Below, piece by piece: positions 2,700 through 56,006 of a DNA stretch of 64,000 nt. The notes beneath the pieces were generated by a model that was not told the DNA's origin, searched no databases, and worked only from the letters and a program-made list of their open reading frames with translations. A program made the translations under genes and the position numbers. Source of the stretch: Candidatus Saccharibacteria bacterium UBA2866. GTDB lineage: Bacteria; Patescibacteriota; Saccharimonadia; Saccharimonadales; Saccharimonadaceae. The stretch is taken from the NCBI GenBank assembly GCA_002350545.1, contig DEEY01000002.1, positions 38,166 through 102,165 on the forward strand. Reading direction: 5' to 3'. The stretch's first letter is position 1. Every line of letters begins with the position of its first letter.

Positions 2700-3746
2700 A
2701 TGAATTTATTGCATGGCGTGGGCGATTTCTTCTCGCTTGATATCGGGACAAATTCGATGCGAATCGTACAGCTTTCTGGCGATAGCCAGCATGGTTGGAC
2801 GCTTCAGAGATTTGCTTATGTGCCAATCGACCAAAAACTAACCGCCGATTCGTCTGCCCTCGGCAAAAAACGCCTCGGTGAGGCCATCATGGGTGCCGTT
2901 GTCCAGGCTGGTATTCGCACCAAAAACGTTGCTCTTGGCCTTCCTGCTAATAAGACTTTTACATCCATCGTTGAGACCGAAACTATTCCTGACAAAGAGC
3001 TTAAAAAATCCTTCAAATATGAAATTGATAAATACGTGCCGATGGCATTAAGTGATGCCAAAGCAGATTTTATTATCCTCGGTCCCAGTCCAAACGATCC
3101 AGCTAAGACTGAAGTATTAGTTAGCTCCATTGCTAAGGACTATGCTGAATCCACCATGGAGACTATCGAAAAAACCGGTCTTAACATTGTCGCCATGGAG
3201 CCTGAACCATTAGCGATGGCGCGCGCACTTACTAACCCAGGTGCTATTGATGCTGTCATGGTAGTTGATTTTGGCGAAAACTCCACTGACCTCGTTATTA
3301 CCTTCAAGAATCAACCTCGCCTTGTCCGTTCTATTCCAGGTGGTTTTGGTGTATTAGTCAAAGCTATCGCTAGCGGCCTTAACGTCCGTGAAGATCAAGC
3401 CCGTCAATTTATTCTAAAATTTGGTCTCGATCAAAACCAAGTCGAAGGTCAAGTCTTCAAGATTCTCGATACCCACCTCGATAATTTTGCTTCCGAGCTT
3501 GCCAAATCCGTTCGTTTCTTCCAAACCAAATACATTAACGGTAAAGTCGGCGGCATTATCTTGTCTGGCTATGCTAGCGTGATCCCACTTTTTGCTAATT
3601 TCATTGAAGCTAAAACCAATATCTCCACCATGAATGGTAACCCGTGGCAATTTGTTCGTACCACTCCAGAGCAACAACAAATGTTGATGAATGTCGCCAG
3701 TGAATTCGCTGTCGCTATTGGTTTATCAGAAAGGAGCAATGACTAA
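2700..3746 (+). CDS. pilM: Type IV pilus assembly protein PilM
   Basis: Actin-like fold motifs LDIGTNSMR, VVDFGENST and ILSGY; first gene of the pil cluster. Confidence 0.93.
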   Translation: MNLLHGVGDFFSLDIGTNSMRIVQLSGDSQHGWTLQRFAYVPIDQKLTADSSALGKKRLGEAIMGAVVQAGIRTKNVALGLPANKTFTSIVETETIPDKELKKSFKYEIDKYVPMALSDAKADFIILGPSPNDPAKTEVLVSSIAKDYAESTMETIEKTGLNIVAMEPEPLAMARALTNPGAIDAVMVVDFGENSTDLVITFKNQPRLVRSIPGGFGVLVKAIASGLNVREDQARQFILKFGLDQNQVEGQVFKILDTHLDNFASELAKSVRFFQTKYINGKVGGIILSGYASVIPLFANFIEAKTNISTMNGNPWQFVRTTPEQQQMLMNVASEFAVAIGLSERSND

Positions 3747-4918
3747 TGGCTCACGAAATAAACCTTGTCCCTGATATCAAAAACGAGATGATTAAAACCG
3801 TCAAGCTTCGCAACTACATTTTCTTTGGTTGTATTGTAGTGGCTGCAGCTAGTGTGTTGCTTACCTTGATTTTTGGCCTCATTATGGGTGGCCAGCGCAT
3901 TGCTATCGAGAACAAAAAATCCACCCTCGGAGAACTTTCCGCCAAACTCAATTCCTATACCGATCTCAACGATTTTCTTACCATCAAAGATCAACTCGGT
4001 AATATCGACACTTTAACCAGTGATAAAAAGGTGCTTTCTCGGACTTTCAATATCCTTTCAGCCTTACTGCCTACTGGTGCTGATACCATCACGGTTTCTG
4101 AGTTAAACGTTAACCTCGCCGAAGAACAGCCCAGTTTCTCTTTGGAGGCTCAGGCTAATGCTGGTAAGGAACCATTCATTGACTACAACGTACTCGATTC
4201 TTTTAAAAAGAGTATGCAGTACATGCGCTATGATTACGGCTCTTATGTAGACAAAGAAGGGAATACCATACCGTCATATTGTATGATTGAGCAGGGCTCT
4301 GACGGCGCATTTCTGAGCGAGGGCGAAAAAGGCCTTTATGCCTACTGGACTATCGAAGGCGACGGCTGCAACCCCTCTGAGACACTCAAAACTAGCGACT
4401 ATGCCACCGAGAGTTATAACGATCAAACCGTCGTGCGTGTTTGGCGTACCCCACAATTTAACGATTGGTACAAAGAAAAAGAATCTAGTAACCAGCCTTA
4501 CATGAGTCTAGACGGCGAAATTAAAAATGTAGCACACTTTGAGAGTGCTTGCACCACCTACAGTGGCAGTGTCAATAACGGCTCTAGTCCTAAATGGGAC
4601 ACAACTAATGATTGTAAATTAGTCTATGGCTCCGGCGGCGAAGAAGGCACTGACGAAAGCGGCATCACTATTACTGAATCTTCTAACGGTCGTGATTCAT
4701 CAAACGAATTAGTTTTGCGCTTTTCTGCTAACATCACCTTAGCCCCGGAAGTTTTCCAGTTCACTAATACACATATGATTGCCGTTGCTCCATCTGGCCA
4801 ACGCAATGTTACTGATTCCTACGTCCAAATTCAATCTATGTTTGGGCAACGTGCCGCTGACTGTGCCGAAGGAGATACTGCTTGTAGCACCGCAAAAACG
4901 AATGAGAGGAGCAATTAA
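3746..4918 (+). CDS. PilN-like alignment protein with an extended extracellular domain
   Basis: EINLVPD motif, then a single TM and coiled coil; directly after pilM. Confidence 0.7.
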   Translation: MAHEINLVPDIKNEMIKTVKLRNYIFFGCIVVAAASVLLTLIFGLIMGGQRIAIENKKSTLGELSAKLNSYTDLNDFLTIKDQLGNIDTLTSDKKVLSRTFNILSALLPTGADTITVSELNVNLAEEQPSFSLEAQANAGKEPFIDYNVLDSFKKSMQYMRYDYGSYVDKEGNTIPSYCMIEQGSDGAFLSEGEKGLYAYWTIEGDGCNPSETLKTSDYATESYNDQTVVRVWRTPQFNDWYKEKESSNQPYMSLDGEIKNVAHFESACTTYSGSVNNGSSPKWDTTNDCKLVYGSGGEEGTDESGITITESSNGRDSSNELVLRFSANITLAPEVFQFTNTHMIAVAPSGQRNVTDSYVQIQSMFGQRAADCAEGDTACSTAKTNERSN

Positions 4919-4920
4919 TC

Positions 4921-5787
4921 ATGGCTAAAGAAATCGCAATCAGTAAACGACTCAAAATCTCTGAAGCTCAGAAATACATGTTGATATCTGTCTTGGTAGC
5001 CTCTATTTTCCTAGGCATAGCTATTTCTCTAGTTTCTTATTTCGTCCGCCAAATTTCCTTTAACACTAAAATCATCATGGCCGAAGAAGAAGCCATCGCC
5101 AATTATTCAAACGTTATCAAAAACACTGGCGCCTGTAAGGCTCCTAAAGGCAGCATTTACTCTAGCGAAGAGTTAGACAATTGCAATCCTGACAGCGTCG
5201 AAGTTTCTGAAGTCCCAAACACTTTGCGTTCTAGTATTCTCGAAGGCCTCGCCTCAAACGAAGCACTCAACTCCGTGCCAAGAGAAGAAAATTCCAGTTG
5301 TGTTAACCCAACCACTAACAAAAACTACACCTATAAAGAGCTCAGCAAAATCTATAAAGATGCCAATGGTAGTGAAGAACTTAACGCTGCTAGCCAGCTA
5401 ATTAAAAGCTGCTCTGCACTCCGGGTTATTCCAGATGCACTTCCTGCCTACAAAAACGAAGAAGCTTTGCTTGCTAGCTTAAACAAACTCTTTAATATTT
5501 CTAACTGGGAGCCAGAATCCATTAGCCCAAGCGGCAATACCGTCGAAGAAGAACTCCCTGCTGGGCTTAATGGCATCTCGGTCAACGTGTCGGTTGAAGC
5601 TAACTCCGGTACTACCATGAGCGTACTCAATAACATTGAGCGTTCCATCCGCGAATTCAATATAAAAACCGCAACTATTGAATGGAGCGGTAGCGATAAT
5701 CTCTTATTACAAGCTCAGGCCAATGCCTACTATATGGACAAATCCATCATCACCGAAACTAAGAAAACTATTAGGGAGGATAGCTAA
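4921..5787 (+). CDS. PilO-like alignment protein
   Basis: Single N-terminal TM; C-terminal LNNIERSIREFNIKTATIEW ferredoxin-like region; operon position. Confidence 0.65.
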   Translation: MAKEIAISKRLKISEAQKYMLISVLVASIFLGIAISLVSYFVRQISFNTKIIMAEEEAIANYSNVIKNTGACKAPKGSIYSSEELDNCNPDSVEVSEVPNTLRSSILEGLASNEALNSVPREENSSCVNPTTNKNYTYKELSKIYKDANGSEELNAASQLIKSCSALRVIPDALPAYKNEEALLASLNKLFNISNWEPESISPSGNTVEEELPAGLNGISVNVSVEANSGTTMSVLNNIERSIREFNIKTATIEWSGSDNLLLQAQANAYYMDKSIITETKKTIREDS

Positions 5788-6135
5788 ATGAAAAACGATC
5801 TCGCCACTGCCATTGTTGCTGCCATTGCCGGTGTAGTTATCTCATACTTTGTTTGTAATATGTTTGTCGGCACCTCTGGTGATTTCTCATTTAATTCAGT
5901 TGATGAATCAGTCAACAGTGATTTAGCTACGCCAAATCCAGAACTGTTCAATTATAAAGCCTTAAATCCTACCGTTGAAGTGTATGTAGGCGATTGTACC
6001 GAGGTTGATGTTTATGGTGAATGTGTTGACAATTCATCTGAACAGATCGAAGAAGACGTAATTGAAAACACAGATACCAACGAAGGTACCAACAACGCCG
6101 ACCAAAGGAACGACGATAATGGCAACACTGACTAG
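5788..6135 (+). CDS. Small membrane-anchored protein of the pil operon
   Basis: N-terminal hydrophobic helix and acidic tail; lies between pilO-like and pilB. Confidence 0.65.
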   Translation: MKNDLATAIVAAIAGVVISYFVCNMFVGTSGDFSFNSVDESVNSDLATPNPELFNYKALNPTVEVYVGDCTEVDVYGECVDNSSEQIEEDVIENTDTNEGTNNADQRNDDNGNTD

Positions 6136-7885
6136 GGAAGCTGAAGACCGTATTGTTAGTTTGCTTCTGGCCGAGGGGCTTGCTGATGCGAATTTAGTTA
6201 ATAGCATCAAGGTTCAAGCAGAATCTGCCGGTAAACCTGTTCTTGACGAGCTAATTAATGGTAAACTCATCAATGAAGATATGGTTGCTCGCGCTACAGC
6301 TGCTATCATTGGTGTACCTTATGTAGAGCTCAAAAACATCACCATCGATCAGGATACTCTCAGTAAAATTCCTGGCGACGCCTCCTCGCGTGTTCTTGCT
6401 GTTGCTCTTGGCGAAAAAGACGGTATGTTAAACGTTGCTATGGTTGATGTTACCAACGTCCAAGCTACCGATTACTTATCAAATCTCATTAATCAACCAA
6501 TTAGAGTTTGGATGTCTTCCGAACGAGGTATTCGTGAAGTCCTCGAGCAGTATCATGGTGATTTTTCTAGCGTCAAAGAGGCCGTTGACGAAACTAATGA
6601 AGAAATCGCTGAGGAAAATGCCAGCTCCAACGTTAAAACTATTGTTCAAGATTCGCCAATTAGTAAAGCTCTTACCACTATTCTTAGCTATGCTGCTAAA
6701 ACCAAAGCATCCGATATCCACATTGAGCCTCTCGAAAATTCGCTTATTATTCGGTGTCGTATCGATGGCGTTCTTCGCAAAATCATGGAACTTCCAAAAA
6801 CTGTTGCTCCAGCCTTAGTCTCACGTATTAAAATTCTGTCTAACCTCAAAATTGACGAACACCGCATCCCTCAGGACGGCCAGTTCACAGTTTTAGTTGA
6901 TGATCAAGAGATTGATCTTCGTATCGCCATCTCACCAGTTACTTGGGGTGAGCAAGTTGTAATTCGTTTGCTTGATAAAACCGGTGTTTCGATGGAAATC
7001 GAAAAAATGGGTATGAGTGGCCGTGCTTTACGGGATGTTCTAAATGGTATTAAGCAACCAAATGGTATGATTCTTACCTCTGGTCCTACTGGTTCTGGTA
7101 AGTCTACCACTCTTTATGCCTTGATTCAGCAAATTAAATCCGAACAAATTAACATTGTAACTCTAGAAGACCCAGTTGAGTATAAAATGGACGGCATCAA
7201 CCAAATTCAAGTTAATGTCGATGCCGGGCTAACTTTTGCTTCCGGTCTCCGCTCTATCCTACGTCAGGATCCTGATGTAGTGATGGTCGGTGAGATTCGT
7301 GACTCCGAAACTGCAGGCCTCGCTGTTCAAGCCGCCCTTACCGGTCACCTTGTCTTTAGCACTCTCCACACCAATTCAGCTGCTGGTATTTTACCTCGTC
7401 TTCTTGATATGGGTATCGAACCATTTCTTCTTGCCTCTACGTTAAATGTTGTGATTGGCCAGCGCCTCGTTCGTCGTATTACCGAAAAGCGTGAAATGTA
7501 TAAATCTTCCGAAATTGAAACCAAGGGTATTAATGACATCGTTGGGAATCTCTTGCCGCAAGACAAAGAATCGGTAGCTCAAGTTAGCGAAGATCTTGGT
7601 TATCCAGGCCTGCCAGTCAAAAACGACGACCACTACATGCTTGCACGTGGCATCGATTCCAAAGAGACACCTGGTGGTTACAAGGGGCGTGCCGGGCTTT
7701 ATGAAACTATTACCGTAGACGAAGATATTCAGAAAACAATCATTAATCATTCTACCGCCAATGAAATCATGCGTCTAGCCAAAGAAAAGGGAACTATCAC
7801 CATGCGCCAAGACGGTATGCTAAAAGCTCTCTCGGGCATAACATCAATAGAGGAGGTTAACCGCGTAGCTAGTGACTTATCATAA
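6119..7885 (+). CDS. pilB: Type IV pilus extension ATPase PilB (GspE/PulE family)
   Basis: ASDIHIEP, GPTGSGKST Walker A, LRQDPDVVMVGEIRD; start moved to ATG 6119. Confidence 0.95.
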   Translation: MATLTREAEDRIVSLLLAEGLADANLVNSIKVQAESAGKPVLDELINGKLINEDMVARATAAIIGVPYVELKNITIDQDTLSKIPGDASSRVLAVALGEKDGMLNVAMVDVTNVQATDYLSNLINQPIRVWMSSERGIREVLEQYHGDFSSVKEAVDETNEEIAEENASSNVKTIVQDSPISKALTTILSYAAKTKASDIHIEPLENSLIIRCRIDGVLRKIMELPKTVAPALVSRIKILSNLKIDEHRIPQDGQFTVLVDDQEIDLRIAISPVTWGEQVVIRLLDKTGVSMEIEKMGMSGRALRDVLNGIKQPNGMILTSGPTGSGKSTTLYALIQQIKSEQINIVTLEDPVEYKMDGINQIQVNVDAGLTFASGLRSILRQDPDVVMVGEIRDSETAGLAVQAALTGHLVFSTLHTNSAAGILPRLLDMGIEPFLLASTLNVVIGQRLVRRITEKREMYKSSEIETKGINDIVGNLLPQDKESVAQVSEDLGYPGLPVKNDDHYMLARGIDSKETPGGYKGRAGLYETITVDEDIQKTIINHSTANEIMRLAKEKGTITMRQDGMLKALSGITSIEEVNRVASDLS

Positions 7886-7906: not shown

Positions 7907-8992
7907 ATGGAAAACAGTGGGCAATTACAAAACAATCTCAAAATCGAATCTTTGCTTGAAGAATGTATTCGCCGGAAGGCTTCAGATTTGCATCTTCAAT
8001 ATGGCCTACCGCCAATTTTGAGAATTGACGGTGCCCTTACTCCTATCGCTGGCAACAATGCCTTAAATGAAGAAACCGTTAAAAGTCTAATTTTTGCAAC
8101 TTTAGATGAAGAACAGCAAAAAATCCTCATGCAGGATAAAGAATTTGATTATTCCTTCGCCTTTGGTGATATTGCCCGTTTTCGTGTTAATGCTTTTCAC
8201 GAACGTGGTAAACTCGCCGCTGCCTTCCGCTTAATCCCTAATCAGATTAAAAGCATCAACGATCTTGGCATGCCTGCCATCGTAGAGACTTTCGCCGAAT
8301 TTCCACGCGGCTTAGTTTTGGTCACCGGCCCTACTGGTTCTGGTAAATCTACCACCCTAGCTGCTCTAATTGATAAGATTAATCGTGAAAAATCTACTCA
8401 CATTATCACGATCGAAGACCCAATCGAATTTACCCATAAATCGCAAAGGTCAGTCATCGCTCAACGTGAAGTTCACTATGATACTTTCAGTTTTGCCGCT
8501 GCACTCCGTTCAGCTCTTCGTGAAGACCCTGACGTAGTATTAATCGGTGAGATGCGCGACCTCGAAACTATTCAAGCCGCTATCACCATTGCTGAAACTG
8601 GACACCTAGTGTTCGCAACTTTGCACACTAATTCTGCCGCTCAGTCAATTGATCGTATGGTAGACGTTTTCCCGGCTCATCAGCAACCTCAAGTTCGCAC
8701 ACAATTATCTAACATATTGATGGCTATTTGTGCTCAGCGTCTCGTCCCGGCTATTGGAGGTGGTCGCGTAGTTGCTGCTGAAATTATGATCGCAAACTCA
8801 GCTATACGTGCTCTTATTCGTGATGGTAAAACACACCAGTTAGATACCGCTATCCAAACTGGCGCAGATCAAGGCATGCAGACTATGGATAGAACATTAG
8901 CCAAACTTGTCCAAACCGGTGTAATTACCTATGATTCCGCCCGCGAATTTGCCGTTGACATCAACGAGCTTAATCGATTAGTAAAGGGCTAG
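7907..8992 (+). CDS. pilT: Type IV pilus retraction ATPase PilT
   Basis: GPTGSGKSTTLAA, ALREDPDVVLIGEMRD, AIRALIRDGK, GMQTMD. Confidence 0.96.
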   Translation: MENSGQLQNNLKIESLLEECIRRKASDLHLQYGLPPILRIDGALTPIAGNNALNEETVKSLIFATLDEEQQKILMQDKEFDYSFAFGDIARFRVNAFHERGKLAAAFRLIPNQIKSINDLGMPAIVETFAEFPRGLVLVTGPTGSGKSTTLAALIDKINREKSTHIITIEDPIEFTHKSQRSVIAQREVHYDTFSFAAALRSALREDPDVVLIGEMRDLETIQAAITIAETGHLVFATLHTNSAAQSIDRMVDVFPAHQQPQVRTQLSNILMAICAQRLVPAIGGGRVVAAEIMIANSAIRALIRDGKTHQLDTAIQTGADQGMQTMDRTLAKLVQTGVITYDSAREFAVDINELNRLVKG

Positions 8993-49772: not shown

Positions 49773-50561
49773 ATGCTAACACCATCAGAAATAGCTATAA
49801 AAACTATCGAAACAGGGAAAACTAAAGCTAACCTACCTTGGTGGAAGATGATTTTACTTGGCATTTTTGCTGGTATGTTTATCGCCTCTGCTGGCGTTGG
49901 CGCCACCTTTGGCAATGTCTATGGCGGCAAAATCGCCGGTGCCTGTATCTTTACTGCTGGTCTCGCCATGGTAGTAGTGGCCGGAAGCGAATTATTCACC
50001 GGCAATAACCTCATGGTTATGGCGCTATTTAATCGCAAAATAAAACTTCACCAACTTCTCAAAAACTGGCTTTTGGTCTTCCTAGGTAATTTTATCGGAG
50101 CATTATTCGTCGCCGTTGTAACAGTAATCAGTGGTGCTTTTGACCAAATGCCAGATACTGTGGTTGCTACCGCAAACGCCAAGGTAAACCTCGGATTCTT
50201 TGAAGCACTCCTTAAGGGTATTATGTGTAACTTTCTCGTGTGTATTGCAGTCTGGATGGCTACTGCCGCGAGCACTGTCACTGGCAAAATCGCCGCTGTA
50301 TTTCTACCCATTATGCTCTTCGTTCTCTGTGGCTTCGAACACTCCATCGCCAACATGTTCTACATTCCAGCCGGCATGATTACCGGCGCAATCAACGGGA
50401 TCCCTGCGCCCACTATTACCGAGTTTCTCTTAAACAATCTCTTGCCCGTCACTATCGGTAACATCATCGGCGGCGCTATTCTGGTCGCTGGCGGCTACTA
50501 TCTCGCCTACCATCCATCAAAACCAAAATCCAAAGACAAAAACCAACCATCCATGTTATAA
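49773..50561 (+). CDS. Formate/nitrite transporter (FNT family)
   Basis: GSELFTGN, KGIMCNFLVC, GFEHSIANM, VTIGNIIGG. Confidence 0.93.
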   Translation: MLTPSEIAIKTIETGKTKANLPWWKMILLGIFAGMFIASAGVGATFGNVYGGKIAGACIFTAGLAMVVVAGSELFTGNNLMVMALFNRKIKLHQLLKNWLLVFLGNFIGALFVAVVTVISGAFDQMPDTVVATANAKVNLGFFEALLKGIMCNFLVCIAVWMATAASTVTGKIAAVFLPIMLFVLCGFEHSIANMFYIPAGMITGAINGIPAPTITEFLLNNLLPVTIGNIIGGAILVAGGYYLAYHPSKPKSKDKNQPSML

Positions 50562-50571
50562 TAAAAAGCAT

Positions 50572-51480
50572 ATGAATAAAAAAGTTGGTGGAGCGAAAGT
50601 AAAAATAATTATAGGCGGAATTTTGTTAGTTGGCGTTGTAGCTATAGCAACAGTACTGTTGACGATAGGAAAAAATAATGAGCGACCATCGGAAATTGGC
50701 ATAACTACCGCGGAAACTACTGAAACTGTCAAAACTCCTAAAAATACTGATAACGATAGCCAATCAGCAGGCGATTTATTTGCCGAACCAAAGGGTGTTT
50801 CCGAAACTACCAAACCGGAAAACCGCGCCCAATCCAAACGCAATCGTCAGCCGTCTAAAGAATCATCCAGACAAGCATCTACTCAGTCAACGGCCAACGA
50901 CTACCAAACCGACGGCTCAAGCCAATCTGCAAATTCAGAATCAGCAAATAATGATTCAAGCGATAACAATTACGCAGAAGCTGAAGAGGTTAGATCTCAG
51001 GAGGAGCTCGCAAGAATGCAAACACAAGGTCAAGCGATTAACCCTAGCAATAGCTACCACTGGAAAGATAACTGTCCGGCAGAAAACGAAAATCTTACTG
51101 CTCGCCCCATCAGCGGGTATCCTGCATGTCAATGCACTAGCTATGTAGCTTGGAAAACGCTTGAAACTTTTGGAATAACTCTTCCTAATTGGGGGAATGG
51201 GAACTTTTGGGACGCTGCGGCATCGGCCAATGGTTACTTAGTGAATAATACTCCTACAATCAACTCCATCGGCCAAATCAAAAATAGCAACTATGGGCAT
51301 CTATTCTGGGTAGAACAAGTTCTTCCAGACGGTTCCGTTATGATCACAGAATACAACAACCCGCTCTCTACTTATCAGCTCACAGGCGACAGTCACACAC
51401 AAGATTTTGGCGCAATGATTATCCCAGCGCAAGCAGCTGTAAACTACATATATATACACCCGAACCAACGAGTTTGGTAG
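50572..51480 (+). CDS. Membrane-anchored CHAP-domain peptidoglycan hydrolase
   Basis: TM, low-complexity linker, QCTSYV...WGNG..W...YGHL.WVE...ITEYN. Confidence 0.85.
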   Translation: MNKKVGGAKVKIIIGGILLVGVVAIATVLLTIGKNNERPSEIGITTAETTETVKTPKNTDNDSQSAGDLFAEPKGVSETTKPENRAQSKRNRQPSKESSRQASTQSTANDYQTDGSSQSANSESANNDSSDNNYAEAEEVRSQEELARMQTQGQAINPSNSYHWKDNCPAENENLTARPISGYPACQCTSYVAWKTLETFGITLPNWGNGNFWDAAASANGYLVNNTPTINSIGQIKNSNYGHLFWVEQVLPDGSVMITEYNNPLSTYQLTGDSHTQDFGAMIIPAQAAVNYIYIHPNQRVW

Positions 51481-51509
51481 CAGTCCATAAAGTGATATAA
51501 TATATATAA

Positions 51510-52205
51510 ATGTTAGAGTTAAAAAACATTTGCTACGAGGTCAAAGGTGGGTCTAGGGCAAAAATCCTAGACCATATTTCACTGCGCATTAAACCTGGCA
51601 GCTTCACCGTTATCACTGGCCCCAACGGCAGTGGCAAATCCACCCTCGCTGATATTATTATGGGTATCAAAACCCCCACGACTGGTAAAATTCTTCTCGA
51701 AGACAAAGACATCACAAATCAAAACATCACCAAGCGCGCTAAAGATATCGCCTACTCTTTCCAACAACCAGTTAAGTTTAAAGGCATCACTGTCTATGAT
51801 CTATTAAACATTGCCAGCGGAGAATTAATCGCACCCGAAGAAGCTGGCGAGCACTTAAAAAACGTTGGGCTAAACCCTGATGATTATCTTGCACGGGAAA
51901 TAAATGACAAGCTTTCCGGTGGGGAATTGAAGCGTATCGAAATCGCCTCCGTGCTCGCCCGCCCCGCTAAACTCTTCGTCTTTGACGAGCCCGAAGCCGG
52001 TATCGATCTCTGGAGTTTTGATAATCTCATCAAGGTTTTTAAAAAACTCAAAAAAGAGAAAAAAACTATCATCATTATTTCTCACCAAGAAAAGATTCTA
52101 AAACTCGCTGACGAAATTATCATCCTTGAAAAAGGAAAGATTAAATCAAAAGGTACTCCGAATACTCTTCTAAAGACCATCACAGGAGAAAATCATGGAG
52201 CTTAA
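51510..52205 (+). CDS. SufC-like ABC ATPase
   Basis: GPNGSGKST, LSGGELKRIEIA, DEPEAGIDL; coupled to a SufB-like gene. Confidence 0.85.
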   Translation: MLELKNICYEVKGGSRAKILDHISLRIKPGSFTVITGPNGSGKSTLADIIMGIKTPTTGKILLEDKDITNQNITKRAKDIAYSFQQPVKFKGITVYDLLNIASGELIAPEEAGEHLKNVGLNPDDYLAREINDKLSGGELKRIEIASVLARPAKLFVFDEPEAGIDLWSFDNLIKVFKKLKKEKKTIIIISHQEKILKLADEIIILEKGKIKSKGTPNTLLKTITGENHGA

Positions 52206-53133
52206 CGATTACGAAAAAGAAATCTTCTGCACTGTAGCCGGTACTACTAACGGTGATGATTTTGAGGTTCCAGCTGGTGCCTACAACTTCCGCGTCAACG
52301 GTAAATCTGTCGGTCGAAACTCTACTAAAAATATCGATGTAAAACCTAAAACCGACAAATCCGGCCTTGATATCACTATCAAGCCGGGTACCAAAAACGA
52401 GCAAGTTCATATACCCGTTGCCATTAGCGCCACCGGTATCAAGGAAGCGGTTTACAACGATTTTCATATTGGCGACAACTCTGAGGTCACCATTATCGCC
52501 GGTTGCGGCATTTATAATTGCGGTCCCACTGATTCAGTGCACGATGGCATCCATCGTTTTTACATTGGTAAAAATGCGAAAATTAAATATATCGAAAAGC
52601 ACTACGGTTTTGGTCCCGGCAGGGGAGGGAAGATTCTTAATCCTATCACCGAAGTCCACTTAAAGGAAAATTCCGAAGCTATTCTAGAACTCGAACAAAT
52701 CAAAGGTGTCGACTCCACTATTCGTAAAACCACCGCTGATTTGGACAAGAACACTAAACTCATCGTCAAAGAACGCTTATTCACTCACGGGCGCCAAACT
52801 GCCGAATCGGTTTACGAAGTGGTATTAAACGGCAAAAACTCCACTACCGACATCGCTTCTCGCTCCATCGCGCAAGATTTATCTAAACAAACCTTCAAGG
52901 CCACCATCATCGGCAACAACAAATGCCGTGGTCACTCCGAATGCGACGCTATCCTCATGGACGAAGCCGAAGTTCACGCTATTCCCGCCCTAGACGCTAA
53001 AACTAAAGATGCCGAACTAATTCACGAAGCCGCCATCGGCAAAATTGCTAGCGATCAAATCAAAAAACTAATGACGCTCGGCCTCACCAAAAAACAAGCT
53101 GAAAGTAAAATCATCAACGGCTTCCTTCGTTAA
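52195..53133 (+). CDS. SufB/SufD-family Fe-S scaffold (short form)
   Basis: Beta-helix character; GHSECDAIL and LIHEAAIGKI motifs. Confidence 0.85.
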   Translation: MELNDYEKEIFCTVAGTTNGDDFEVPAGAYNFRVNGKSVGRNSTKNIDVKPKTDKSGLDITIKPGTKNEQVHIPVAISATGIKEAVYNDFHIGDNSEVTIIAGCGIYNCGPTDSVHDGIHRFYIGKNAKIKYIEKHYGFGPGRGGKILNPITEVHLKENSEAILELEQIKGVDSTIRKTTADLDKNTKLIVKERLFTHGRQTAESVYEVVLNGKNSTTDIASRSIAQDLSKQTFKATIIGNNKCRGHSECDAILMDEAEVHAIPALDAKTKDAELIHEAAIGKIASDQIKKLMTLGLTKKQAESKIINGFLR

Positions 53134-53161: not shown

Positions 53162-53215
53162 TTGCAATTCCATATTTAGTGTTATATACTAGATAACAGA
53201 CACCAAATATAGCGT
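53162..53215 (+). promoter_or_regulatory. nrdD promoter with tandem NrdR boxes
   Basis: TTGCAA-17-TATACT; ATTCCATATTTAGTGT (53167-53182) and ACACCAAATATAGCGT (53200-53215). Confidence 0.7.
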
Positions 53216-53262: not shown

Positions 53263-55458
53263 ATGTTCAAGAGAATCGTCAAGAGAGACGGAAAAATCGT
53301 AAAATTTGATCCTGAGAAAATCACCGAAGCCATTGCTAAGGCTGGTCTTGCTACCGAAGAGTTTAAATATGATCGCGCTAAGGCCCTGACTGATAAAGTT
53401 ATTGCTCGCGCTGATGAGAAAATCACTGCTCGTACCCCAAACGTTGAACAAATCCAGGACATCGTAGAAGAAGTTTTGATGGAATCTAGCTTCAAAAAGA
53501 CTGCTCGTGAATATATTCGCTATCGTCAGGAGCGTTCACGCCGCCGCGAAGCCAAATCTGATCTCATGATGGTATACCGTACCATTAGTCATGCTGATGC
53601 CTCCGAAGACTCTGATGTCAAGCGTTCTAACGCTAACGTTGACGGTAACTCCGCCATGGGTAAAATGCTTCAATTTGGCGCCGAAGGCTCTAAGGTTTTC
53701 GCGAAATCATTGTTGCTCCGTCCTGACATTGCTGCCGCACATGATAATGGTGATATCCATATTCATGACCTAGACTTTTATGCTACTGGTACATTGACTT
53801 GTTGTCAATCTGATCCATTTGTAATGTTTGAAAACGGTGGCTTTAACACTGGTCATGGCCACTTAAGGACTCCGAATTCCATTGGTTCTTATGGCGCATT
53901 AGCGGCCATCCTTCTTCAAGCCAACCAAAACGAGCAACACGGTGGTCAGTCCATCCCTAACTTTGATTATGCTATGGCCCCAGGCGTCAATAAATCATTT
54001 AGAAAAGCCCTGAAACGTAACCTCAAAAAATATAACAAGTTCACCGGTAAGAAACTCGACCTTGAGATTAAAGATACTTATGAATACGGCAACGATGATA
54101 AACTGAAAAAAGCTAAATGGCCAAAGGAGATCATCGAGGCGTCTAACGAGGACGTCGAACGTGAAACCCTTCAAGCTATGGAAGGTTTCGTCCATAATCT
54201 TAATACCATGCACTCTCGCGCCGGTGCCCAAGTACCATTTACTAGTATTAACTTTGGTACTGATACTAGCCCAGCTGGTCGCTTAGTTTCAAAGTACCTG
54301 CTTGAAGCTACGGCTAATGGTCTAGGCAAAGGCGAAACGCCAATCTTCCCAATTAGCATTTTCAAGGTCAAAGAAGGCGTTAATTATAATCCGGAAGATC
54401 CTAACTACGACCTCTTTAAACGCTCTATGGAAGTATCTGCTAAGCGCTTGTTCCCGAACTTCTGTTTTATCGATGCTCCGTATAACCTCAAATATTACAA
54501 AAAAGGTGATTATCGTACTGAGATTGCTACCATGGGCTGCCGTACTCGTGTCTTCGCCAGTATCTTCCCAGAATCTGACGGCATCGTTACCGGTCGTGGT
54601 AATTTGTCATTTACCACTATCAACCTCGTCCGCATCGGCATCAAGCATGGCATCTGTCTCGGCGAGCGCAAAGAAGCCGACTGGGACGGTTTCTACAAAG
54701 AACTCGACGAGAAAATGGACCTCGTGAAAGACGAGCTCCTCGAGCGCTTCGAATTCCAAGCCAACCAACACGTTCGCAACTTCCCATTCCTCATGGGGCA
54801 AGGGAACTGGTTCGGCTCCGAGAAACTTGGTTGGAACGACACTCTTCGCGATGTCATCAAGCATGGTACCTTATCGATTGGCTTCATTGGCCTTGCTGAA
54901 ACTCTCGTAGCTATGACCGGCAAACATCACGGTGAAGACGAAGATTCGCGCGAACTTGGCCTTGATATCATCACTTTCATGCGCGAAAAATGTGATAGTT
55001 ACAGCAAAAAATACAAACTCAATTTCAGCCTTCTTGCCACTCCAGCCGAAGGTATTGCCGGCCGCTTTACCAAGATTGATCGCAAAGAATTTGGTAAAAT
55101 CAAAGGCGTTACTGATAGGGAATTTTACACCAATTCCTTCCACGTACCAGTTTACTACCCAATTAGTGCGTTCGAGAAAATCGAAATCGAAGCCCCTTAT
55201 CATAATCTTTGCAACGCCGGCCACATTACCTACATCGAATTAGACGGCGATCCATCCCAGAATATCGCTGCCTTCGAAGCTGTCATCCGTAAAATGCACG
55301 ACGAAGGTATCGGTTACGGCTCCGTCAACCACCCAGTTGATCGCGATCCAGTCTGTGGCTTCTCCGGTATTATTACTGGCGAACGTTGCCCACACTGTGG
55401 TCGCCTTGAAGGGGATGTCCCATTCGAAAAAGTTTGTAACTGCGCGAAAGGTAACTAG
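53263..55458 (+). CDS. nrdD: Class III anaerobic ribonucleotide reductase lacking the C-terminal glycyl-radical motif
   Basis: ATP-cone, HIHDLD, QVPFTSIN, TMGCR, ATPAEG, C-terminal CxxC; no RxxGY(L/I). Confidence 0.88.
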   Translation: MFKRIVKRDGKIVKFDPEKITEAIAKAGLATEEFKYDRAKALTDKVIARADEKITARTPNVEQIQDIVEEVLMESSFKKTAREYIRYRQERSRRREAKSDLMMVYRTISHADASEDSDVKRSNANVDGNSAMGKMLQFGAEGSKVFAKSLLLRPDIAAAHDNGDIHIHDLDFYATGTLTCCQSDPFVMFENGGFNTGHGHLRTPNSIGSYGALAAILLQANQNEQHGGQSIPNFDYAMAPGVNKSFRKALKRNLKKYNKFTGKKLDLEIKDTYEYGNDDKLKKAKWPKEIIEASNEDVERETLQAMEGFVHNLNTMHSRAGAQVPFTSINFGTDTSPAGRLVSKYLLEATANGLGKGETPIFPISIFKVKEGVNYNPEDPNYDLFKRSMEVSAKRLFPNFCFIDAPYNLKYYKKGDYRTEIATMGCRTRVFASIFPESDGIVTGRGNLSFTTINLVRIGIKHGICLGERKEADWDGFYKELDEKMDLVKDELLERFEFQANQHVRNFPFLMGQGNWFGSEKLGWNDTLRDVIKHGTLSIGFIGLAETLVAMTGKHHGEDEDSRELGLDIITFMREKCDSYSKKYKLNFSLLATPAEGIAGRFTKIDRKEFGKIKGVTDREFYTNSFHVPVYYPISAFEKIEIEAPYHNLCNAGHITYIELDGDPSQNIAAFEAVIRKMHDEGIGYGSVNHPVDRDPVCGFSGIITGERCPHCGRLEGDVPFEKVCNCAKGN

Positions 55459-56006
55459 TGGACTATCATAAAATTTCACTAGAAAAAATATCAAGGCAGC
55501 TTGAGACACCAGCCGGCTATATCCGGCTGAGTGCCCCTCTAGAACACGACAACATCGTTAACGGCGATGGCCTTCGCGCGGTTCTTTGGACTCAAGGATG
55601 CCCAAATCATTGTCCCGGCTGTCAAAACCCCGAAACTTGGGATTATGAAGCTGGCTATCTTGTCAAAATCGACGACATCAAAGAAGAGCTTAAAAAATTC
55701 AAGGGTCAAGCTGGGCTCACCTTCTGTGGTGGGGAGCCCTTTGTTCAGGCTAAGGCCTGTAAAGAAATCGCTGATTGGTGCCGTAAAGAATTAAACTGGA
55801 ATGTTTGGAGTTTTTCTGGTTTTACCTATGAAATTATTAAAGAATATGGTAAAGCACCCTGGGAATTCCTTAAATCTCTTGACGCTTTAATCGATGGACC
55901 GTTCATTTTGTCTCAGCGTGATTTAAGTCTCAAATACCGCGGTTCTAAAAACCAACGTCTCTTACACCTGGAGCAGGGAAATGGGAATATTCTATCAACC
56001 GAATAA
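55458..56006 (+). CDS. nrdG: Class III RNR activase (radical SAM)
   Basis: GCPNHCPGC (CxxxCxxC), GGEP, YRGSKNQR. Confidence 0.93.
   Translation: MDYHKISLEKISRQLETPAGYIRLSAPLEHDNIVNGDGLRAVLWTQGCPNHCPGCQNPETWDYEAGYLVKIDDIKEELKKFKGQAGLTFCGGEPFVQAKACKEIADWCRKELNWNVWSFSGFTYEIIKEYGKAPWEFLKSLDALIDGPFILSQRDLSLKYRGSKNQRLLHLEQGNGNILSTE

Follow-up and report, generated by a model that had tools for sequence, protein, structure and literature searches.

A class III ribonucleotide reductase without its glycyl radical domain, conserved across the gut genus Candidatus Nanosyncoccus (Saccharibacteria)

In a 64-kb stretch of a Saccharibacteria (TM7) genome from the rumen and gut genus Candidatus Nanosyncoccus, referred to here at its full length as the window, we found that nrdD, the gene that encodes a class III ribonucleotide reductase (RNR) catalytic subunit, stops just before the region encoding the C-terminal glycyl radical domain (GRD), a domain of ~35 residues. 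A C-terminal GRD is regarded as a hallmark of all class III RNRs and of all glycyl radical enzymes. The truncated form is fixed in the genus and, judged from the conservation of its sequence, is both functional and old. The explanation we favour, with about even confidence, is that nrdD may encode the core of a split class III RNR, which would receive its glycyl radical in trans from a GRD protein whose gene lies in another part of the genome.

For comparison we used 80 Nanosyncoccus species representatives from GTDB, taking each nrdD locus with 10 kb of flank on each side. The gene ends could be parsed in 79 of these loci, and residue conservation was counted over 78 species (77 for the NrdG cluster motif). 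These loci and the closest proteins are named Nanosyncoccus or 'Candidatus Saccharibacteria bacterium', and their hosts are cattle, sheep, goat and yak (gut). The parts of nrdD and of the adjoining activase gene nrdG, in window coordinates, are as follows.

53263..55458, + strand: nrdD, class III RNR catalytic subunit, 731 residues, without GRD (matches to PRK07111, PF13597, TIGR02487 and 8p23)
53272..53538, + strand: ATP-cone, residues 4-92 (Pfam PF03477, E = 2.4e-21)
54538..54540, + strand: Cys426 codon, for the cysteine that bears the thiyl radical on finger loop ATMGCRTRV (whole loop invariant in 78/78 species)
55339..55404, + strand: Zn-ribbon region DRDPVCGFSG...RCPHCGR, residues 693-714 (D693-G702 and R708-R714 essentially invariant over 78 species)
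55405..55431, + strand: conserved stub LEGDVPFEK, residues 715-723 (F721 in 78/78 species, E722 in 76/78, K723 in 69/78)
55432..55458, + strand: variable, often Cys-containing tail VCNCAKGN and the TAG stop, the site of the missing GRD (comparison of tails across species)
55458..56006, + strand: nrdG, radical-SAM (S-adenosylmethionine) activase, 182 residues, with a GTG start at 55458 that shares the G of the nrdD TAG (TIGR02491, Fer4_12)
55458..55520, + strand: lineage-specific N-terminal extension of NrdG, VDYHKISLEKISRQLETPAGY (comparison with fused and split NrdGs)
55599..55622, + strand: radical-SAM cluster motif CxxxCxxC of NrdG (C48, C52, C55; cysteines invariant over 77 species)

NrdD scored above the curated cut-offs of two family models, with 1023.8 bits against the NCBIfam equivalog PRK07111 (cut-off 764) and 552.8 bits against TIGR02487 (cut-off 326). 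The match to PRK07111 covered model positions 1-709 of 746, the match to the Pfam NRDD profile (PF13597, E = 2.4e-180, residues 123-714 of the protein) covered profile positions 2-529 of 562, and the alignment with the solved NrdD of Prevotella copri (8p23, E = 2.8e-186) stopped at chain residue 704 of 743. Because all three alignments stop short of their ends, the last ~35 positions of the family are absent from NrdD, whose C-terminus reads ...CPHCGRLEGDVPFEKVCNCAKGN and is followed directly by the TAG stop. The closest fused relative (P0121, 57% identity) reads ...EEDVPFERIRRITGYLVGTLDRFNDAKKAEEKDRVKHE, and the comparison therefore places the cut exactly before the Gly loop: the stub LEGDVPFEK is the counterpart of the strand that leads into the loop of fused enzymes, and P0121 goes on from there with VPFERIRRITGYL.

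No Gly loop was found nearby in another form. An R..GY[LIVMF] loop occurs in no real open reading frame (ORF) of the window, and none is encoded downstream of nrdD in any of the three forward frames. A profile hidden Markov model (HMM) of the GRD (consensus RIRRITGYLVGTLDRFNSGKKAELKDRVKH), whose matches have E values of 1e-12 to 1e-19 wherever the domain is present, gave no match in the 64 kb (best E = 3.4). A frameshift, read-through or bypass that restores the motif was rejected, as no downstream frame holds a Gly loop. We also considered a pair of GAAAAA hexamers, 56 nt apart, at 55426-55431 (FEK of NrdD) and 55482-55487 (LEK of NrdG) as a site joining the two frames, and dropped it as coincidence; the second copy is not conserved, and other species have ANI, KNI or ERM there.

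The remainder of the enzyme is intact. C180, C426 and N447 are invariant, and conservation ends right after F721-E722-K723. The Zn ribbon is of the Asp/3-Cys (D-x-x-C) form common to NrdD and its close fused relatives such as P0121, with metal binding predicted from sequence. NrdG matched TIGR02491 at 131.7 bits (cut-off 126.1) and Pfam Fer4_12 at E = 3.8e-35; its GGEP motif is invariant and its RGS.NQR motif nearly so. As far as these comparisons reach, NrdD passes every class III test applied (curated cut-offs, the thiyl Cys with the bottom-face Cys and Asn, the Zn ribbon and an adjacent NrdG) except that for the C-terminal RxxG[YF] loop and following helix, which is the defining element of class III radical chemistry. 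Set beside canonical NrdD/NrdG pairs (phage T4, E. coli and the P. copri enzyme), the window pair shares full-length homology, the ATP-cone, a finger loop that bears one thiyl Cys, the Zn ribbon, the adjacent radical-SAM activase and NrdR-type boxes; it differs in that NrdD stops before the RxxGY loop and helix and that NrdG has an extra N-terminus of ~20 residues. An earlier note on this DNA, made from the letters alone, had stated that NrdD ends before its glycyl radical motif, that homologues continue after VPFE with an RRITGYL-type loop, that nrdG starts on the nrdD stop codon, and that the thiyl Cys, ATP-cone, activase, promoter and NrdR boxes are retained, and on each of these points our analysis agrees. 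Of the small ORFs with RxxGY[LI] that it proposed to look for in the genome, none is present among the real ORFs of the window.

The truncation is genuine and old. Positions 55200-55700 were letter-identical in three independent Logan assemblies from different studies (depth 11-14), none of which restores the motif, and 19 public runs from different studies contained all sampled words. Three of the runs (X6-X8) are labelled 'mouse gut metagenome' and contain every sampled word of this ruminant-type sequence, and a labelling or carry-over issue is possible. Among database proteins, all of the best 120 homologues (91-96% identity) share the NrdD end: they are conserved to ..CPHCGRLEGD[VL]PFE[KR] and then carry a variable tail such as VCNCAKGE, IACC or VCDCVNCDCADCNCTKKD. 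The same truncated end was present in 79/79 parsed Nanosyncoccus loci, in most of which nrdG overlaps or abuts the nrdD stop. Tail length ranged from 2 to 18 residues across species (for example S, ACC, VCNCAKGE and VCDCVNCDCADCSCTKKD), with C727 kept in 72/78 species. Over 400 random pairs of Nanosyncoccus species, nonsynonymous divergence (pN) was 0.058-0.095 across the ATP-cone, core and Zn-ribbon regions, synonymous divergence (pS) was 0.78-0.85 and saturated, and the last seven NrdD residues were relaxed (pN 0.28 versus ~0.06 for the core). Identical assemblies, fixation throughout the genus, purifying selection and invariant catalytic residues together exclude an assembly error and a recent pseudogenization, the latter having been proposed in the earlier note along with a check for a shared end under selection; the sporadic distribution, relaxed selection and lost catalytic residues of a pseudogene are not seen here.

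Cores of this kind are not confined to Nanosyncoccus. When proteins were clustered at 50% identity, the Gly loop was missing from many of the 150 closest representatives, one of which belongs to cultured Selenomonas strains; these proteins keep ..NHPVDRDPVCGY.GII..CP.CGR.EGE and the MGCRTRV thiyl loop, often with an intein at the Cys. For such cores with readable DNA context, a separate GRD ORF is usually close by. A neighbour-joining tree of 122 representatives was star-like, with GRD-less and fused states intermingled. IMG/VR was scanned with the C-terminal part of GRD-less proteins, and in the resulting set the GRD profile matched in 80/80 loci: the domain was fused in 54 and encoded by a separate small ORF in 26 (E = 1e-12 to 1e-19), and the separate ORF adjoined the GRD-less core or lay a few kb from it. 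A split operon also occurs on the chromosome in Oscillospiraceae. Present in four assemblies (L163-L166), it consists in L163 of a core gene at 3691-5973 (760 residues, ending ..RRKYPQMPAFQGIE), a grd gene at 6001-6162 (53 residues) with its own Shine-Dalgarno site AAGGAGG, and nrdG at 6155-6667, with tRNA synthetase and ABC transporter genes as neighbours; the grd product (P0388, from a metagenome-assembled genome) is labelled 'hypothetical protein'. In the cultured Eggerthella phage EL753P1, likewise, nrdD is GRD-less and a GRD ORF labelled 'hypothetical' comes after it.

This phage ORF (L255 3926-4131; OP172808.1 6964-7169) shifts its reading frame immediately ahead of TGY: a stop follows ..GFERIRRI in one frame, and the sequence goes on ..LTTGYLTGSADRWNDAKKAELRDRVKH in the -1 frame. 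The same break occurs at 8838-8984 of an IMG/VR contig (L123), and it may be a programmed shift and not an error.

Free GRD proteins are in fact numerous. We searched a 5.8-billion-protein collection separately for short-type and long-type GRD proteins and listed the best 120 matches for each. With the short-type profile (consensus ..GV.FERIRRITGYLVGT.D.WN.AK.AEE.DRVKH), the best 120 (P0305-P0424) were all autonomous GRD proteins of 43-81 residues reading M..G.GV.FERIRRITGYLVGTMDKWNDAK.AEERDRVKH.., some from clusters with >200 members. Long-type proteins are 112-157 residues long with an N-domain of ~85 residues and gave 2162 matches; the examples checked were phage orphans. Orphan genes of both types lie in phage genomes (L170-L174, L175-L254, L260, L329) beside terminase, portal, capsid and holin genes, and among the best 80 viral loci for the GRD profile, 71 were orphans, lacking both a core and nrdG in the surrounding 6 kb. 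An adjacent core is thus no requirement for a GRD gene. The orphan phage GRDs look like 'spare parts' for the class III RNR of the host. Of the best 120 proteins listed in each search, those checked for context were from Oscillospiraceae or phages, and none bore a Saccharibacteria name. In NCBIfam (June 2026) and PHROGs we found no model for small GRD proteins, only matches to the last ~35 positions of full NrdD models, and the proteins are currently labelled 'hypothetical protein' or 'ribonucleoside-triphosphate reductase'. A search of full-text literature and reviews returned no description of a GRD-less NrdD or an autonomous NrdD-type GRD; according to a review of June 2026, among the classes of glycyl radical enzymes, spare-part proteins are known for formate lyases only (PMC13450708).

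The closest outgroup NrdGs that we found come from two phage-like contigs (L256 and L328; GC content 40-41%) with genes for a large terminase subunit, TnpB and HNH proteins, and these contigs carry a split system: an NrdD core, a long-type grd and nrdG. The core ends ..CPLCGRRENNIPFDKLTVSDKN (..NIPFDKLTVSDKN), much like the window NrdD, with ..IPFDK and a short tail in L328, and nrdG starts MKIRLSGPLERDSIVNG... In both contigs (L256 2286-3364, L328 4557-5627) grd is broken exactly at the Gly codon, after ..FERLRRITG, and resumes YLVGTLERFNDGKKAEEKDRVKH; the insert carries an HNH endonuclease gene and is probably a group I intron. A similar break, after which the ORF resumes at YLVGT, lies around 10079-10222 in L096-L102. 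Identity to the window NrdG is 68% for the NrdG of L256, and identity to other Nanosyncoccus NrdGs is 75% for that of L328, compared with a mean pairwise identity of 79% within Nanosyncoccus and only 45% for the Oscillospiraceae NrdG. Because 68-75% approaches the mean within the genus, the Nanosyncoccus activase is almost identical in kind to an activase working on a free GRD, and this similarity makes it likely that the Nanosyncoccus NrdG retained a free GRD as its substrate. Among viral relatives of the window NrdG in IMG/VR, none exceeded 40% identity.

The window system resembles the split nrdD-core/grd/nrdG systems (L163-L166; L081, L148, L256/L328; EL753P1) in having, next to nrdG, a core that is without the GRD but keeps the thiyl loop and Zn ribbon intact. 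The window core also retains its catalytic residues and is under purifying selection, and its NrdG is close to split-operon activases. The window system differs in three ways: the split systems have a separate GRD ORF between or near the genes, whereas in Nanosyncoccus nothing fills this slot; the window NrdD is without the conserved, longer helical tail (..EKLEELKKKY..MP..) of most split cores; and the NrdGs of split systems are without the N-terminal extension, unlike those of Nanosyncoccus.

In the split enzyme that we propose, the NrdD core would keep nucleotide binding, allostery and thiyl-radical chemistry, with the ~35-residue GRD off the polypeptide. NrdG would use S-adenosylmethionine to load the radical onto a small, separate GRD protein with a gene elsewhere in the genome, and this protein would dock in the open end of the NrdD barrel beside Cys426, as the covalent GRD of ordinary enzymes does. 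Its docking would parallel that of GrcA (YfiD) on damaged pyruvate formate-lyase (PFL). The two share the concept of a small free Gly-loop protein, activated by the activase, that complements a core without a working GRD; GrcA, however, belongs to the PFL branch (RVSGY) and rescues a full-length enzyme cleaved by oxygen, whereas the window core is genetically GRD-less.

Several observations weigh against such a protein in Nanosyncoccus. In the window and in the 10 kb on each side of nrdD in the 80 species, the GRD profile had no match in any frame (best E about 1), a separate ORF of the form ..FER[IL]RRITGYLVG..RVKH was absent, and an HMM of the long-type N-domain found nothing. Relaxed motif scans (R.{1,4}G[YFW]...[RK].xH and R..GY) returned sporadic short ORFs only, none of them in the window, and on these scans we rejected a PFL-type or divergent GRD near nrdD. 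Since synteny around nrdDG is poor, the flanks sample ~290 kb of non-redundant coding sequence (~320 ORF families), which we estimate at about one-third of such a genome; the miss carries some weight and is informative, not decisive. Moreover, grd lies within a few kb of the core in readable split operons, yet no Nanosyncoccus species has anything in the slot between nrdD and nrdG, and at its N-terminus the NrdG of Nanosyncoccus has acquired an extension with which split systems dispense. Of the ideas in the earlier note, that of a small protein supplying the radical domain in trans is supported as the favoured explanation: autonomous GRDs, split operons and the 75%-identical NrdG give it strong precedent, and a Nanosyncoccus GRD gene itself was found neither in the window nor in the flanks of the 80 species.

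The same observations bear on another explanation, which we regard as unlikely though worth serious attention: a class III RNR that needs no glycyl radical. NrdG would here act as a stoichiometric radical-generating subunit, and its 5'-deoxyadenosyl radical would take the hydrogen from Cys426, directly or via another residue. The abstraction might occur through the barrel opening left by the missing GRD, with the NrdG extension and the LEGDVPFEK stub as docking elements, a detail that we likewise hold to be improbable. Held on NrdD by its extension, NrdG would thus make the Cys426 thiyl radical directly from S-adenosylmethionine, which would give class II RNRs a counterpart that depends on SAM, again with low likelihood. 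In favour of such an enzyme are the lack of any GRD in the window or the ~290 kb of flanks, the grd slot that is empty in all species, the lineage-specific P-x-G-containing extension absent from fused and split relatives, and the finding that only nrdD and nrdG are constantly linked. To our knowledge, a radical-SAM enzyme that makes the thiyl radical of an RNR directly is without precedent. A chemical precedent does exist in class II RNRs, in which the 5'-deoxyadenosyl radical derived from adenosylcobalamin makes the thiyl radical directly (summarized in PMC9531940), with no stable protein radical and no GRD; the window NrdD, however, is no member of class II by sequence, no B12-binding elements were seen in it, and its radical source would be S-adenosylmethionine and a [4Fe-4S] cluster on a separate protein. 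Also against it, NrdG is 75% identical to a phage NrdG serving a free GRD and shows no accelerated change, the GRD search spans only about one-third of the genome, and the extension is only moderately conserved. Mean pairwise identity is 44% in the extension versus 79% in the NrdG core, and some Nanosyncoccus species have only 13-16 residues there.

More doubtful still is that the pair is conserved for a purpose other than ribonucleotide reduction, with the epibiont salvaging deoxynucleotides from its host and NrdD and NrdG kept for sensing, binding or other radical-SAM chemistry. Saccharibacteria genomes are reduced and limited in biosynthesis (PMC7427843), and NrdD homologues that truly lost catalysis exist (P0200, P0204, P0216, P0226, P0246, P0260). 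Those dead homologues, however, have lost the catalytic cysteines, whereas in Nanosyncoccus C180, C426, N447 and the finger loop are invariant, the activase cluster motif and NrdR-like boxes are kept, and pN is uniformly low over the whole protein.

It is very improbable that the radical glycine sits on the NrdG extension (..TPAGYIR), with the activase carrying the radical itself. The extension is real: NrdGs of fused systems, Oscillospiraceae and phages begin directly at M.IRISG, MLDLSG or MKIRLSGP, so the ~20 residues that precede IRLS(A/G)P in Nanosyncoccus are specific to this lineage. It appears in the same lineage as the GRD loss, and EKISRQLETPAGYI bears a superficial likeness to ERIRRITGYL. 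Its motif, Pro (76/78)-x-Gly (73/78), nevertheless makes a poor radical site. In 5/78 species D, K or R replaces the Gly of P-x-G-[YFM], the residue after this position varies freely (Y/M/F/K), and the later Gly, that of 'SGP', is Ala in the window NrdG and six other species; the 'PAGY' of NrdG is therefore no radical site, and the role for it floated in the earlier note falls away. The GRD HMM does not match the extension, and IRLSGP.. is the ordinary NrdG N-terminus. We also rejected the extension as a relic of the GRD or of the long-type N-domain, since neither HMM matches NrdG and the likeness is by eye only. Last, an assembly error or a freshly inactivated pseudogene has next to no probability, given the identical independent assemblies, the 19 runs, a truncation fixed across 80 species under strong purifying selection, and no GRD remnant in any frame.

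Further observations concern GRD-less and related NrdDs elsewhere. Selenomonas sp. KH1T6 (FNWN01000020.1, L161 8360-10648) encodes a GRD-less NrdD of 762 residues ending ..CPHCHRKEVETGSFTIKRMKK, with no nrdG or GRD ORF within 10 kb of the gene; cultured Selenomonas strains are a second cellular lineage with the same puzzle. In one group of GRD-less cores (P0124, P0126, P0128, P0130, P0134, P0135, P0137, P0182, P0202 and the L096 core) a conserved acidic end reads ..NPDEEADR[LV]SN[PT][LI].., recalling the alpha-binding C-terminal tail of the class Ia beta subunit (..DDLSNFQL in E. coli), and it may serve as a docking peptide. Inteins sit exactly at the thiyl-radical Cys (..SHN|CRTRV..) in many NrdD homologues of 900-1700 residues (P0127, P0130-P0132, P0138-P0140 and others). 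Natural NrdD-NrdG fusions occur both with an intact GRD (P0170) and with a degenerate RRINDLL loop (P0226). A separate NrdD-like group of ~650-700 residues without Zn ribbon, GRD or catalytic cysteines probably consists of pseudo-enzymes.

Upstream of nrdD the window contains the following elements.

53162..53190, + strand: sigma-70-like promoter, TTGCAA -17- TATACT (consensus scan, 9 of 12 matches)
53167..53182, + strand: NrdR-like box 1, ATTCCATATTTAGTGT, overlapping the promoter spacer (sequence reading)
53200..53215, + strand: NrdR-like box 2, ACACCAAATATAGCGT (sequence reading)
49773..50561, + strand: formate/nitrite transporter (FNT), 2.7 kb upstream of nrdD (Pfam PF01226, E = 3.7e-76)

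The pair of NrdR-like boxes recurs with fixed spacing upstream of nrdD in 66/80 Nanosyncoccus species. The region directly upstream of nrdD (49773-53133) encodes FNT, SufC, a protein with a CHAP domain and another with a SufBD core. Class III RNRs with a single-Cys loop usually take formate as their reductant, and the FNT and Suf neighbours fit a formate-using, Fe-S-dependent system. Over 81 sources, linkage to nrdDG was 4/81 for FNT, 23/81 for SufC/SufBD and 16/81 for RelA, so the FNT link is weak; the constantly linked genes are nrdD and nrdG only, which adjoin each other in 80/81. Gene order nearby is strikingly unstable although Nanosyncoccus species share 87-99% NrdD identity, and 232 of the 322 ORF families in the flanks occur in a single locus.

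By all these comparisons, the genus Nanosyncoccus has kept an enzyme without a GRD for a long evolutionary time. Annotation pipelines call such cores ordinary NrdD and their partners of 43-150 residues hypothetical proteins, and metabolic reconstructions of Saccharibacteria and gut Firmicutes rest on an assumption as a result of these labels. The RNR reported for Saccharibacteria that live with hosts is nrdD, and the B12-dependent one occurs in environmental members of the group (PMC7427843). If the GRD of Nanosyncoccus is a free mini-protein, class III RNRs would, like pyruvate formate-lyase, possess radical cofactor proteins that stand alone, the GRD family (short and long, operonic and phage-orphan) would be a large unannotated group, and the phage-orphan genes would probably be auxiliary genes that sustain dNTP (deoxynucleoside triphosphate) synthesis in the host. 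If there is no GRD protein, the enzyme would represent a new route of initiating ribonucleotide reduction, bearing on the origin of B12-dependent from SAM-dependent RNRs, and a glycyl-radical-independent NrdD would, if true, be a present-day link between the chemistries of classes III and II.

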